A DNA stretch of 64,000 bases, from the IMG/VR virus record IMGVR_UViG_2551306393_000012. One strand, 5' to 3'. The notes under the pieces are model-generated. The model was not told the origin of the DNA. It ran no database searches and saw only the letters and a program-made list of their open reading frames with translations. The position numbers were made by a program, and so were the translations under genes. Of this stretch, positions 20,779 to 26,676 are shown in pieces (position 1 is the stretch's first letter; each line of letters opens with the position of its first letter). The DNA comes from a virus.

Positions 20779-20880
20779 AGAACTAAAGGAGAAGTTCATT
20801 CCCCTTTAGCTTAGCTCTCATCGGCGTATACGTTGGCGTTGTCTCTTTGGTCGGAGCCGCTTGCGTATACGCTTTTTCTT
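20779..20880 (+). ncRNA. SR6-like antisense antitoxin RNA (ends approximate)
   Basis: TTTACA (20745) and extended -10 TG-n-TATAAT (20764-20772) point into the yonT 3' end; GCGTATACG inverted repeat followed by a T-run near 20875; SR6 is known from SPbeta. Confidence 0.65.
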
Positions 20881-20994
20881 TTTGCTTGTCCCATTCTTTA
20901 GGTTTCTTATCTTCTCAACTATTGTTAGACTGTTGATTGTAAGAACCGTTAAAGATATGAGGAAAGCAACTATGATACCCACTTTCTCAAGCAC
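20818..20994 (-). CDS. yonT: Type I toxin YonT (58 aa)
   Basis: GTG start with SD AAAGGAGGTG; TM helix plus Arg/Lys-rich tail KKKKRIRKRLRPKRQRQRIRR. Confidence 0.9.
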   Translation of the reverse strand: MLEKVGIIVAFLISLTVLTINSLTIVEKIRNLKNGTSKKKKRIRKRLRPKRQRQRIRR

Positions 20995-22199: not shown

Positions 22200-24074
22200 T
22201 TGAAAGGAAAAAAAGATGGCCTAAATAAGCAAGTACATATTTACAGTATTGATACTTCTGCTTTTTATAATGATCAAGAAAACAAATTACATAACAAGAT
22301 TTTAAAATCATATAGGTACAGAGATCATCTCAAAAAACTTGAACATGTTGATAAAAAACATAAGAAGTACATAACGCAAAGGATTATTTCCTTAAAAGAA
22401 AAGCTTTATAACGCCTTTAACGATCATATTCAAATAAGAACACTTAGAACAGATTCCCTGAAAGATAATAATGTGATTTCATTATTTGATTCAGTCTTAA
22501 CTCGAACGTTGGGAATCAAAGAAAACTCTCTCTCTGAAGAGATCATGGTTGTCCAAACTTATCACTTTCAAATTTTAAGGGACATTATTGATAAAGGATT
22601 CATACATAACAATGAGAAATACGTTTATTTCACTAGCAGTGCCGGTCAAATACGAACCAAAAAGTCTTGTTTTATCAAACAAAGCACCTTAGATAAGTAT
22701 CAAAATGCTTTAACTTGTGGTCTTAGTGTGGAGCATATCAATGCTCAAGGTGGAAGCAGCATAAACAAATGGAATAGCTACATGGCCTTATCGAATAGCG
22801 CCAGCAGTCCATGGGAAATTGATATTGATAAAGCAATTGTCGTAAATGACTTAGAAACAAATGTTTCCAGCCTAGTTGATTATATTGACCGGGATACATA
22901 TGAAATCACACGTAAGATTATGGATATTCCTATAGAACATACAGATGGTTGTGGAATGATGCTCCCTAGTTTGAGTCAGAAAAGCTTTATGGTCAGATTA
23001 CCTTGGGTTAAGGGTCTACTTGTTCCATTTGACTTTAGAAAGTTTGCTGAAAAACACAGTTCATTTATAGTTAAAGACGTCTACGGTAAAGAATGGGACA
23101 TTATTAAAGATGATATCCAAATAATTTTTACGAAAAGCCAGTTTAAGATGTGGAAGTACTATGATTCTTGGGATGATTATCGCTATAAATTTAAAAAGTA
23201 TGGATGTTTAGGAGCTAAATTAAATGAAGAAGATCCATCTGTTGAGGGAAAACTGACTTACCAGATGCTACAAACACTCACTGATATCACAGATGAGGAA
23301 TTGAAACAAATCAGCTCAAAGACTGTTAGTGAGATTACTCAATTAGGCACTGATAAAGAAACAATGATGAAAGTTTTGGGGGCTACCGAGAAAAATAAAC
23401 ATAAAACAAGCCTTCAAGAAGCTCTTCTAATATATCCTGAGCTGCTAAATGATGATCACACCAAAGAAATCATTAAGAATAAGAAGAAGAGTATGATTAA
23501 AGACGCTAAATCAGGAAAATTAATTGTCAGTGACGCCCGGTATACATATTTATGTCCAGATCTATATGCTTTTTGTGAAAGAATGTTTCTTGGAATTGAG
23601 AATCCAAAAGGACTTCTCACCGACAGCAATGTTTATTGTTCTTTATATGATGAAGGGCATATTGATATCCTCCGCTCCCCTCACCTATACAGAGAACATG
23701 GAGTTAGATGGAACAAGAAAGACGAGGAATATGATAAGTGGTTCATTACCCCAGGTGTTTATACCAGCATTCATGATCCGATATCCAAGCTGCTGCAGTT
23801 TGACAATGACGGGGATAAGGCCTTAATTATTTCTGATGAGCTAATCGTCAATATTGCCAAACGTAATATGGAGAACATCGTTCCTTTGTATTATGAAATG
23901 TCTGTAGCCCAGAAACAAGAGATTAATAGCAGAAACATCTATGAAGCACTAACTCTTGCTTATGGAATCAATATCGGGGAGTACAGTAACAATATCACTA
24001 AGATATGGAACAGTGACAATATAAACCTGGACGTGATCAAATGGTTATGCATGGAGAATAACTTTACTATCGAT
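22200..24074 (+). CDS. yonO: YonO single-subunit double-psi-barrel RNA polymerase, exon 1
   Basis: TTG start with SD GGGGAG; TDGCG, RLPWVKG, RSPH, catalytic FDNDGD; frame ends ...ENNFTID at the intron. Confidence 0.93.
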
Positions 24075-24474
24075 TAAATTTATAGTCGCATCGCATAGCG
24101 ATATGCGGATGAAAAGTCAGTGAACCTAGAAAACTAGGGTGTGCATTCAGCGAAAAGTAGCGATAGGAAATGATCGTCAATGAGTGTGCTAACAGGGGAA
24201 TTCTAATTAATACATTTTACATTTTTAAACAATGGAATTAAACAAGGAAGAACCTATAAAAATGTGAAATGAATGTAGAATGTATTATATGAAAACCCTG
24301 TGCCAAGCGTTTACATCATGCTGAGAAGTACTTGTAAATGAAGGTGCAACGACCATCCTTTATGGAGTAATAATAAGGTGAAATTCCTTATTATGAAGCG
24401 CTGACCATCTGTCTAGTACAGATGATGATATGGTCTATTCCCTAATAAATATCGGGAAACCGAGGGTATCAAAG
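24075..24474 (+). ncRNA. Group I intron (400 nt, no internal ORF) in yonO
   Basis: Exon ends in U and intron ends in G; P1 CGAU/GUCG with U.G at the splice site; P/Q-like gtgctaacaggggaa and aaccctgtgccaagc; P7 ACGACCA (~24349) pairs with TGGTC (24431); removal restores ...TID^FAKT in frame. Confidence 0.9.
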
Positions 24475-25107
24475 TTCGCAAAAACCTTATTCATGCCCAC
24501 CCGCCCTGATCATGTTGATGAGCAAATCAAAGATTACATAAAAAATAAAGTGCCCCACTTCTTCATCAATGCAAAGGATAAAGAAGAACATAGCGTAGAA
24601 TCGATTAATGAAAGTACAGTAAATAAGTTAGACTCAATTATTCCTAATGAACGAATCAACTTTAACGCAGTTGCAGGAAAATTTGATTACCGTTTCTTAC
24701 TTCGAAATAAAAAAGTGAAACTTGATGAAACGGTTATCAATGAGTACAAACGTCTTGACCGAAACAAAAAGTGGCTCATGAATAATGAAGAAATTAAACC
24801 AGGAGAAAAGCTATACGTCTATAAGATTATCAAACAAAGATTAATGGAAATACATAACGATGAGCAACTTATTACAGATGTTTTAGTTAAGTACCTATAT
24901 AAAAAGAAGAGTAAATTCAAATCGACTTTGTGGGAGTGCTTTGGCGAACATATATTGGAAAATTTAAAGATTAACTTAAGGAATTTTAAGGCTTGTGGGA
25001 ATTGCGGAAAAATGTTCAGTCCCTCTTCTAATAAATCTAAATACTGTAACAATTGCTCAAAAAAAATGATCTTAGATAAACATAAACGCTACAATAAAAA
25101 AAGATAA
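24475..25107 (+). CDS. yonO: YonO RNA polymerase, exon 2 (spliced product 835 aa)
   Basis: [11 protein letters not shown]... in frame after splicing; C-terminal CxxC...CxxC zinc finger. Confidence 0.9.
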
Positions 25108-25369: not shown

Positions 25370-25645
25370 ATGAACAAAACAGAATTTGTTGGAGCAGTTG
25401 CAGAAAAATTAGGTGTTACTAAGAAAGAAGCTACTCCTAAAGTTGAAGCAGTATTTAATGTCATCGTTGAAACACTAGCAAAAGGTGAATCAATCAAGAT
25501 TCCTGGAGTTGGTACATTTGAAGTTCGTGAACGTGCAGCTCGTAAAGGGAGAAATATCCAAACTGGCGAGGAAATCGAAATCCCTGCTTCAAAAGCAGTG
25601 AAATTTAAACCTGCAAAAGCTTTAAAAGATTCAGTCAAACAATAA
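25370..25645 (+). CDS. yonN: HU-family histone-like protein
   Basis: MNKTEF...IPGVGTFEVRERAARKGRNIQTGEEIEIPASKAVKFKP; SD AGGAGG. Confidence 0.95.
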   Translation: MNKTEFVGAVAEKLGVTKKEATPKVEAVFNVIVETLAKGESIKIPGVGTFEVRERAARKGRNIQTGEEIEIPASKAVKFKPAKALKDSVKQ

Positions 25646-25710: not shown

Positions 25711-26676
25711 ATGCTACTAATGCCATACGAAGAATACATTAAAGTCAACTTGTATTCCCATAGGAAAATTCCGTTTTCTTGTGACTATTGCAACAAGCGA
25801 TTCTTTAGGAGAAAAATCAACCACACAAAAATCTCAAACAAAAATGACTGTCTCATTGAAAAAGACTGTTGTAAAGAATGTATCAAGTATAAAAATACTG
25901 AGGCATTGTTTAAAAGTTTAAACTGCCAAAATACTGACTTGATGATTAAACATATGGTAAATAAAAAAATAAAGACTTTATCTGGTGTGTATTCAATTAG
26001 AGATAAACAAAACAATAAGAAATATATAGGTTCTTCTAAAGACCTTGTTCAAAGGTTTAAAGCTCATCTTTTAGATATGAAAAATAAAGATCATCATATA
26101 AGTGAATTTAATTCCTTAGATCCAAAGCATCTTGAATTTAATATTATTGAATATGACACAGCTTTACCAGATTTAATAATCCGAGAATATCATTTTATTA
26201 ACCTGTATAATTCTCATGATCCTCTTCATGGCTACAATACAATGCATACCAAAAGAAACACAGTAAGAAGTACTTTAAAACCTTCTAAAAAAAGTATTGA
26301 AGCCAGACTCAATTCCTCAAAGTTTACACTTCAACAGATCAAATATATCAAAAAGGCACTTTATAATGGAGAACGAATTAAAGATCTTGCACTTGAATTT
26401 AATTGTAAAGAAGCCACAATACATAGTATAAAAAGTTGCTCTACTTGGGAAAATGTTTTACCTGAATTGAATGAAAAACTAAGGAAATTAACATACGTTG
26501 GCATTCACAAAGGAGAAAATAATGCGTGTTCAAAACTAAATGAAACAATGGTTAAAGAAATAAAAACACTGATTATTTCAGGACTCCCTCTGGTGACCAT
26601 CGCTAAAAAATTCAACGTAAGCTCTACAACTATTGGACATATAAAAAGAGGTAAGCTATGGTCTCATGTAAGTTAA
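25711..26676 (+). CDS. Free-standing GIY-YIG homing endonuclease
   Basis: N-terminal Cys cluster, GVYSIRD...KYIGSS..R...H..E..YN, two C-terminal HTH repeats (...EFNCKEATIHSIK..TWENV / ...KFNVSSTTIGHIKRGKLWSHV). Confidence 0.88.
   Translation: MLLMPYEEYIKVNLYSHRKIPFSCDYCNKRFFRRKINHTKISNKNDCLIEKDCCKECIKYKNTEALFKSLNCQNTDLMIKHMVNKKIKTLSGVYSIRDKQNNKKYIGSSKDLVQRFKAHLLDMKNKDHHISEFNSLDPKHLEFNIIEYDTALPDLIIREYHFINLYNSHDPLHGYNTMHTKRNTVRSTLKPSKKSIEARLNSSKFTLQQIKYIKKALYNGERIKDLALEFNCKEATIHSIKSCSTWENVLPELNEKLRKLTYVGIHKGENNACSKLNETMVKEIKTLIISGLPLVTIAKKFNVSSTTIGHIKRGKLWSHVS

Follow-up and report, generated by a model that had tools for sequence, protein, structure and literature searches.

A spliced group I intron in the RNA polymerase gene yonO of an SPbeta-family prophage

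The analyzed DNA of 64,000 nucleotides (nt), virus record IMGVR_UViG_2551306393_000012 of the IMG/VR database (hereafter the window), represents a prophage of the SPbeta family, whose yonO region is 99.1–99.4% identical to those of the phages phi3T, SPR and SPbetaL3. Its yonO, encoding the phage RNA polymerase YonO, is interrupted at positions 24075–24474 by what is, with high confidence, an SPO1-type group I intron, functional and self-splicing, in a phi3T/SPR-like prophage and at the same time a decayed mobile element. No mention of an intron in yonO was found in literature searches, nor in two reviews on SPbeta and the paper on YonO, in agreement with the first-pass annotation of this sequence, which likewise knew of none.

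Borders of the insertion and the spliced RNA

Two open reading frames (ORFs) were present on the plus strand of the region, the first with 625 codons (22200–24077, including the stop) and the second, located 350 nt further on, with 225 codons (24430–25107). In SPbeta (NC_001884), yonO is a single uninterrupted gene of 839 codons, and the alignment with this intron-less gene revealed a clean insertion of 400 nt in the window: the junction reads GAT/TTT GCA in SPbeta and GAT-[400 nt]-TTC GCA in the window. Only one placement gives U as the last exon base (24074) together with G as the last intron base (24474), and it was identical to the one proposed in the first-pass annotation. The first codon of the intron is an in-frame TAA. 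The joining of a 625- and a 210-amino acid (aa) frame at TID/FAKT, also proposed there, was reproduced: the spliced product is a single frame of 835 aa (NNFTID-FAKTLF at the joint) with 93% identity to SPbeta YonO. An intein was ruled out by the stops in the exon frames within the insert and by the frame change across the insertion.

The intron is real and is spliced in cells at the predicted borders. Thirteen RNA-seq runs cover the region, and four of them, from four studies, were examined. In run X9 (2017, single-end) a 59-nt contig with a depth of 46.5 joined position 24074 directly to 24475 ("skips 400, TA..AG"), the exon 1 contig stopped at 24075 (depth 52) and the exon 2 contig began at 24475 (depth 59), and an unspliced contig of 459 nt ran through the intron with a depth of 21.6, which is the pattern of an assembly bubble. 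Judged by contig depth, which is a rough measure, roughly two-thirds of the molecules were spliced. The joint contig was identical to the window without a mismatch and, hence, had TTC at codon 626, the codon present in 22/22 close intron-bearing alleles, whereas the 25 close DNA alleles without the intron all have TTT. Because it had this marker of the intron allele, the joint represents spliced RNA and not an empty DNA allele. Run X14 (an RNA library) contained an endonuclease-bearing form of the intron with 895 extra letters in the P5 loop (window 24225–24232), joined to the exons in a single contig; no form other than the unspliced one was seen in this run, and it may be carry-over DNA.

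According to the proposed mechanism, the primary transcript would fold into a ribozyme, in which a guanosine cofactor would attack after U24074, held in P1 by a U.G wobble, and the freed end of exon 1 would attack after G24474, joining the exons into an mRNA for the 835-aa polymerase. Such chemistry would be guanosine-dependent, and the intron presumably splices itself without proteins. Without splicing, translation would stop at the in-frame TAA and yield no more than a 625-aa fragment. In SPbeta, YonO transcribes the late operon (PMC5467207). Since the TAA directly follows D625 and exon 2 lacks its own ribosome-binding site, the YonO-dependent late transcription in the window prophage would require splicing.

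Structure of the ribozyme and its relatives

A search with YonO exon 1 yielded 73 loci in bacterial genomes and 80 viral contigs of IMG/VR, and was followed by tblastn with the spliced protein. The comparative set consisted of 21 distinct homologous introns, among them a 334-nt intron in an unrelated gene of an Enterocloster phage, and was aligned segment-wise between conserved anchors. All helices from P3 to P9 were found in the canonical order with the P3/P7 pseudoknot (Table 1). The 79 base pairs were standard in 99.0% of the alignment cells of the 21 homologues, and 34 of them showed compensatory double changes, compared to 7.1 ± 2.0 in 500 column shuffles (none of which reached 34), while sliding of the 3' partners by 1–3 columns dropped the number of compensatory pairs to 1–6. 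The minimum free energy (MFE) fold of the whole element recovered most of the helices, with z = -5.5 against shuffled sequences. Two alternative pairings, P2 in its MFE version AUCGC/GCGAU and P3 as UCAGCG/CGCUGA, were ruled out by the comparative data.

Both structural features singled out in the first-pass annotation, a P1 with a U.G pair and a covaried P7, were upheld by the alignment. The P1 pairing and its wobble U24074.G24083 at the 5' splice site were retained in 21/21 homologues, and the base at exon position -4 changes together with its guide partner, the pair being C-G in the window, U-A in locus L159 and A-U in L006. The P7 of the window differs from the Rfam consensus GACUA/UAGUC by a double change from U-A to C-G, and the homologues have three covarying versions of this helix: GACCA/UGGUC, GACUA/UAGUC and GGUCA/UGACC. 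The P2 loop is GUAA, GCAA or GUGA in relatives, and P3 varies as GAUGGUG/CGCCAUC (Enterocloster phage), CCCAGUG/CGCUGGG (SPO1), GUUGGUG/UGCCAAC and UAUGGUG/UGCCAUA. P7.1 and P7.2, the insertion of subgroup IA between the P7 5' and P3 3' strands, are present and conserved, with covariation at the base of P7.2. All four pairs of P9a covary, and a terminal G was found in 21/21 homologues, whose introns end with AAAG or AAGG. The base of the P5 arm (UCUAAU...UAUGA) resembles the 11-nt receptor for GAAA tetraloops, with UCUAAG/UAUGA or CCUAAAC/GCAUGG in its place in relatives; the GAAA loop of P9 is present in all of them and may dock with this putative receptor.

Table 1. Coordinates of the yonO exons, the intron and its structural elements in the window
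Feature	Position	Strand	Remarks
yonO exon 1	22200–24074	+	625 codons, ends with NNFTID; catalytic DNDGD triad at residues 535–539; from ORF list and translation
Group I intron	24075–24474	+	400 nt, 36% G+C; SPO1-type (IA-like, P7.1/P7.2); without endonuclease gene
P1	24071–24088	+	exon CGAU + intron UA (24071–24076) / guide UAGUCG (24083–24088); MFE fold and homologues
P2 hairpin	24091–24108	+	UCGCAUA/UAUGCGG, GNRA loop GCGA; compensatory changes in 4/7 pairs
P3 5' strand	24116–24122	+	GUCAGUG, partner 24399–24405; double changes in 4/7 pairs
Two-arm element, P3-P4 interval	24125–24189	+	compensatory changes in 10/19 pairs
Two-arm element, arm 1	24125–24138	+	hairpin CCUAG/CUAGG
Two-arm element, arm 2	24141–24149 / 24181–24189	+	stem GUGCAUUCA/UGAGUGUGC around hairpin GCGAU/AUCGU (24160–24164 / 24173–24177)
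P4 and long P5 arm	24192–24301	+	P4 ACAGGG (24192–24197) / CCCUGU (24296–24301)
GIY-YIG endonuclease remnant	24234–24272	+	last 12 codons plus stop (GIKQGRTYKNVK*), equal to the C-terminus of the Goe11 ORF
P6 and P6a hairpin	24302–24345	+	GCC/GGU; 2/3 P6 pairs covary; fits the GCCAA...AAGGU block of the Rfam consensus
P7 5' strand	24351–24355	+	GACCA, partner UGGUC (24431–24435); helix of the guanosine-binding site; 3/5 pairs covary
P7.1 and P7.2	24356–24394	+	P7.1 UCC/GGA; P7.2 of 9 bp, AUAAUAAGG/CCUUAUUAU, loop UGAAAUU
P3 3' strand	24399–24405	+	CGCUGAC; fold and pair counts
P8 hairpin	24406–24424	+	CAUCUGU/ACAGAUG; 3/7 pairs covary
J8/7 and P7 3' strand	24425–24435	+	AUGAUA, UGGUC; best-conserved block
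P9, P9a and 3' end	24440–24474	+	P9 CCC (24440–24442) / GGG (24464–24466); P9a UCGG/CCGA with GAAA tetraloop (24452–24463); G24474
yonO exon 2	24475–25107	+	210 codons plus stop, begins with FAKTLF

The yonO intron is a member of the SPO1-type family of introns in phages of Firmicutes, since the P3-P4 stretch and the layout are common to it and the SPO1 intron, and its P3-P4 element is not new. The stretch, including the two-arm element, is 72–73% identical to that of the SPO1 DNA polymerase intron and its relatives, and the J8/7-P7 core is ~90% identical to introns of many Staphylococcus, Listeria, Enterococcus and Bacillus phages. The intron in SPO1 gene 31 has a P2 capped by a GNRA loop, a P3 of the form xxxAGUG/CGCUxxx, two arms and J3/4-P4 UAACAGGGG, all in the same layout as in yonO, and further shares with it the P6 sequence GCCAAG, J6/7-P7 CAACGACUA and J8/7 AAGAUAUAGUC. 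Both introns interrupt a conserved site in a polymerase gene of a Bacillus subtilis phage, but the host genes differ: that of SPO1, a virulent phage, codes for a DNA polymerase, and yonO for the RNA polymerase of a temperate phage of the SPbeta type. They also differ in the endonuclease ORF, which follows the 5' strand of P8 in SPO1 (its product is the HNH-type I-HmuI), whereas in the yonO introns a GIY-YIG ORF is placed in the P5 loop, from which it is deleted in the window. The SPO1 record (NC_011421) states that gene 31 "contains intron", and this intron was reportedly found to be self-splicing by Goodrich-Blair and colleagues in 1990. Other homologues already recognized in sequence records are the terminase intron of the Staphylococcus phage PH15 (a joined coding sequence plus a homing endonuclease) and the polymerase intron of BSP10.

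Several points weigh against the identification as a functional self-splicing intron. An Infernal search with the Rfam model RF00028, proposed with the first-pass annotation as a check, gave only 19.7 bits (E 0.019, in a 1-kb slice) against a gathering score of 50, and scans of the whole window gave no RF00028 match at either the gathering score or a permissive setting. P10 is weak, with one or two possible pairs with the 3' exon. The 21 introns of the covariation set span only about five truly divergent lineages, their alignment anchors were chosen by hand, and the helices were written by eye prior to counting. The spliced joint is known from one run of one study, and the flanks of its contig (29 and 30 letters) fall just below the 31-letter bridging rule, as is expected of a 31-mer graph. 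Finally, runs X1 and X2 gave the unspliced contig only; since contigs drop minor forms, these two runs are uninformative. The low Rfam score weighs little because the same model also misses annotated relatives, namely the PH15 terminase intron and the endonuclease-bearing insert in the split BSP10 DNA polymerase gene, as well as the homologue at the yonO site in L158, which has a canonical P7. The score, therefore, is a limit of the model rather than of the RNA. In the 1-kb alignment, RF00028 placed P6, J6/7, P7, P8, J8/7 and P9 sensibly, while its alignment of the 5' half (P3, P4 and P5) was rejected as wrong by covariation.

Loss of the endonuclease gene and mobility of the intron

The yonO intron of Goe11, BUCT083, SPbetaL4–L7 and ten further loci has 890 extra nt in the terminal loop of P5, which encode a protein of 300 aa with a GIY-YIG domain (30.8 bits, Pfam cut-off 22.6) and NUMOD3 (24.5 bits, cut-off 20.4), while the match of its C-terminus to a helix-turn-helix was weaker and below the cut-off. 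The same combination is found in the td intron of T4, whose endonuclease I-TevI consists of a GIY-YIG domain, a NUMOD3 linker and a C-terminal helix-turn-helix, and in both cases the ORF is located in a peripheral loop, albeit in P6a in T4 and in the P5 loop in the relatives of the yonO intron. In Goe11 and BUCT083 the 3' end of the endonuclease ORF overlaps a ribozyme stem. By means of this I-TevI-like homing endonuclease, the intron presumably invades yonO alleles that lack it. No intact endonuclease ORF was present in the window copy: it has lost 890 nt of the gene, with the deletion junction at ~24231–24233 adjoining a short ATG repeat (alignment with Goe11 and BUCT083), and retained only the last 12 codons, which overlap the 3' strand of P5. 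The window intron is a decayed derivative and not an autonomous mobile intron.

A survey of yonO alleles, also suggested at the outset, demonstrated that the intron is polymorphic. An insertion exactly at residue 625/626 was present in 28 of the 153 YonO loci plus phage records (the two phage-record loci, L002 and L003, counted), and the rest were empty at this site; an additional locus, L153, had the same insertion start but was cut off by the contig end and stands outside the 28. The inserts were of 400 nt (the window form) in 3 loci, 330–331 nt in 8 and 1275–1296 nt in 14, with single loci having 358 nt (L158, YonO 53% identical), 495 nt (L018, YonO 65% identical) and 1154 nt (L159). The deletion endpoints differ among the 330/331-, 358- and 495-nt forms, which argues that the endonuclease gene was lost several times, and the 495-nt form retains a similar C-terminal remnant; repeated loss of this kind represents the phase of decay that a homing element is expected to enter. 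The intron occurs in phi3T, SPR and SPbetaL3, and the copy of phi3T, a viable phage, is the same 400-nt form with 99.8% identity. SPbeta, Goe12, Goe13, SPbetaL1, L2 and L8 lack it, as do many close prophages, among them L125 with a 98% identical YonO, so that presence and absence alternate at one site in both the 98% and the 86% clades.

This distribution bears on the role proposed for the intron. The first-pass annotation saw in it a group I intron in yonO, on which late transcription depends, and a possible checkpoint in the lytic switch. The first part was retained and the dependence was retained as probable, but the checkpoint was not supported, because near-identical phages lack the intron. 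It is quite improbable that the intron is kept because its splicing rate gates the production of YonO and times late transcription, even though full-length YonO would be impossible without splicing, transcription of the SPbeta late operon relies on YonO (PMC5467207) and run X9 had a sizeable unspliced fraction by the same rough depth measure. Apart from its polymorphism, the element occurs with or without the endonuclease and in several deletion forms (330/331, 358, 400 and 495 nt), related introns interrupt YonO homologues at two other sites, and the RNA showed neither a sensor nor a regulated element; the whole pattern is that of a selfish homing element. Similarly, it is unlikely that splicing is rate-limiting or condition-dependent, with the ribozyme gating the phage RNA polymerase and the entry into late gene expression.

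By analogy with the gp210 intron of phage PhiPA3, it appeared more likely than such gating that endonuclease-bearing versions of the Goe11 type may act as weapons between co-resident SPbeta-like phages. The gp210 intron of PhiPA3 is a putative group I intron in the gene for an RNA polymerase beta subunit of a jumbo phage (Birkholz et al., Science 2024, PMC11620839), and a mobile intron in a phage RNA polymerase gene has been described in gp273/274 of 201phi2-1 (PMC2919709). Similar to the yonO intron, these are putative group I introns beside conserved residues of a two-barrel phage RNA polymerase, and the homing endonuclease encoded in the PhiPA3 intron is directed against the intron-less allele found in a related phage (PMC11620839). 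However, their hosts are Pseudomonas, their polymerase is multi-subunit, and the PhiPA3 endonuclease is an HNH nickase rather than a GIY-YIG enzyme. In contrast to PhiPA3, the window copy has no endonuclease and would, therefore, be at most immune and not aggressive; if the weapon reading is true, it would merely protect its own yonO from cleavage. Within the SPbeta family, group I introns of bnrdE and bnrdF, some with endonuclease ORFs, are polymorphic among related prophages (Lazarevic et al. 1998, 2001, as summarised in PMC8270828). Like the yonO intron, they interrupt essential genes of this family, but other genes and at other insertion sites; neither Rfam nor a blast search with the yonO intron detected them in the window, and the window had no other copies of the yonO intron family. 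The yonO intron is nothing unusual among mobile phage introns. Phage polymerase genes, those for RNA polymerases included, are already well known to harbour introns, and the general knowledge of group I introns remains unchanged. The occurrence of endonuclease-bearing, ORF-less and empty alleles in plaque-forming B. subtilis phages would offer a convenient system in which to follow intron homing, the loss of the endonuclease and any competition mediated by the intron.

Three additional observations concern mobility. Codon 626 (window 24475–24477) tracked the intron perfectly, as TTC or TTT, in 47 related loci across two clades with 98% and 86% protein identity, and exon position -4 was always C in intron-bearing alleles and T in 6/10 empty alleles of the 86% clade. 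This pattern could be a co-conversion footprint, a constraint of P1 or a determinant of endonuclease recognition. Two contigs labelled as "Streptomyces sp." (L009, NZ_JBHVTC010000023.1) and "Paenibacillus sp." (L078, NZ_JBHVMZ010000041.1) contained yonO genes of the SPbeta-type Bacillus form (85% and 98% identical, respectively), each with the same 331-nt intron; their labels look like contamination or mislabelling. A free-standing gene for a GIY-YIG nuclease of 321 aa with C-terminal helix-turn-helix repeats is located at 25711–26676 (plus strand) in the window, after the HU-like yonN (25370–25645). A megablast comparison with 50,697 phage records gave no match to it, and no gene is present at this place in phi3T and Goe11. 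Collaborative homing with the intron was rejected, as no association was seen: its product has only 25% identity to the intron endonuclease of Goe11, and phi3T, SPR and others have the intron without this gene, although it might still act in trans.

Insertion site, gene records and other RNAs

The intron directly follows the codon of the invariant Asp625, at one of the best conserved blocks of the polymerase: residues 616–635 have a mean conservation of 0.82 compared to 0.63 overall among 104 distinct YonO homologues, and I624, D625 and K628 are invariant in a 30-sequence alignment. The resemblance of TID/FAKT to the VDxxKT motif of double-psi-barrel polymerases, suggested in the first-pass annotation, was not confirmed. 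In YonO, the triad D535/D537/D539 is essential (Forrest et al., PMC5467207), and D625/K628 are located ~90 residues after this DNDGD triad (535–539), whereas Qde1 has its invariant basic residues in the other barrel, five residues apart and ahead of the triad (PMC2919709). By this comparison, the basic residues of the two-barrel fold in YonO are probably R266/K271 and not K628. A YonO profile gave nothing usable against solved structures (best E 0.057, annexin).

In the phi3T, Goe11 and BUCT083 records, yonO appears as two separate coding sequences (CDSs) and the intron is left unannotated. That the insertion stays in the RNA and YonO works as two polypeptides is very improbable, although the paired CDSs (yonO_1/yonO_2 in Goe11, phi3T_60/phi3T_59) would imply it and the ATG at 24430 opens a 225-aa frame containing exon 2. 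This ATG, the apparent start of exon 2, is not preceded by a Shine-Dalgarno sequence and lies inside J8/7-P7, the annotated start of the second CDS varies between records, the break would fall between the invariant D625 and K628, and the insert is a covarying ribozyme whose joined RNA is present. Equally hard to credit is a dead intron, with a core decayed along with the deleted endonuclease gene (as the low Rfam score might suggest), an inactive yonO and a prophage defective in late genes, given that all core helices are intact and paired, the spliced joint of X9 derives from the 400-nt form, and this form occurs in the phage genome records of phi3T and SPR.

The reading as a spliced intron has practical consequences for phi3T and SPR, which serve as models in work on arbitrium signalling, prophage recombination and phage defence. 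Both are annotated with a yonO divided between two "hypothetical proteins", and the correct model is one polymerase of 835 aa produced via RNA splicing, which affects knock-outs, expression constructs, proteomics and the counts of "conserved proteins".

Further insertions of 830–1392 nt were observed in YonO genes of other Firmicutes at two sites, residue 534–536 (between F and the DNDGD triad) and residue 189/190 (L018:5585–6414, L062:5474–6449, L072:5105–6093, L080:1706–2724 and also L072:2609–4000). The reading frame differs on their two sides, ORFs of 151–320 aa lie within them, and they have the same intron hallmarks: GGUGAACC near the 5' end and, near the 3' end, AAGAUAUAGUCU in the insertions at DNDGD or GGGUAUAAAGG in the one at residue 189/190. 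In L018, a single yonO gene has two introns. YonO-type polymerases are thus a recurrent home of related introns, which occupy three conserved sites, including that at the catalytic DNDGD triad.

Other structured RNAs were observed in the region and in a relative. The gene-poor stretch between yonN and yonK of Goe11 contained a DUF3800-VIII RNA (L002:6849–6914) with 52.5 bits, above the cut-off, and a sub-threshold match to the skipping-rope RNA (L002:5543–5652; 31.3 vs 36.7 bits); no such matches were present in the window. The sole Rfam family above the cut-off in the window was the Bacillus SR6 antitoxin RNA, with a full-length RF02892 match of 128 bits at 20780–20883 on the plus strand.

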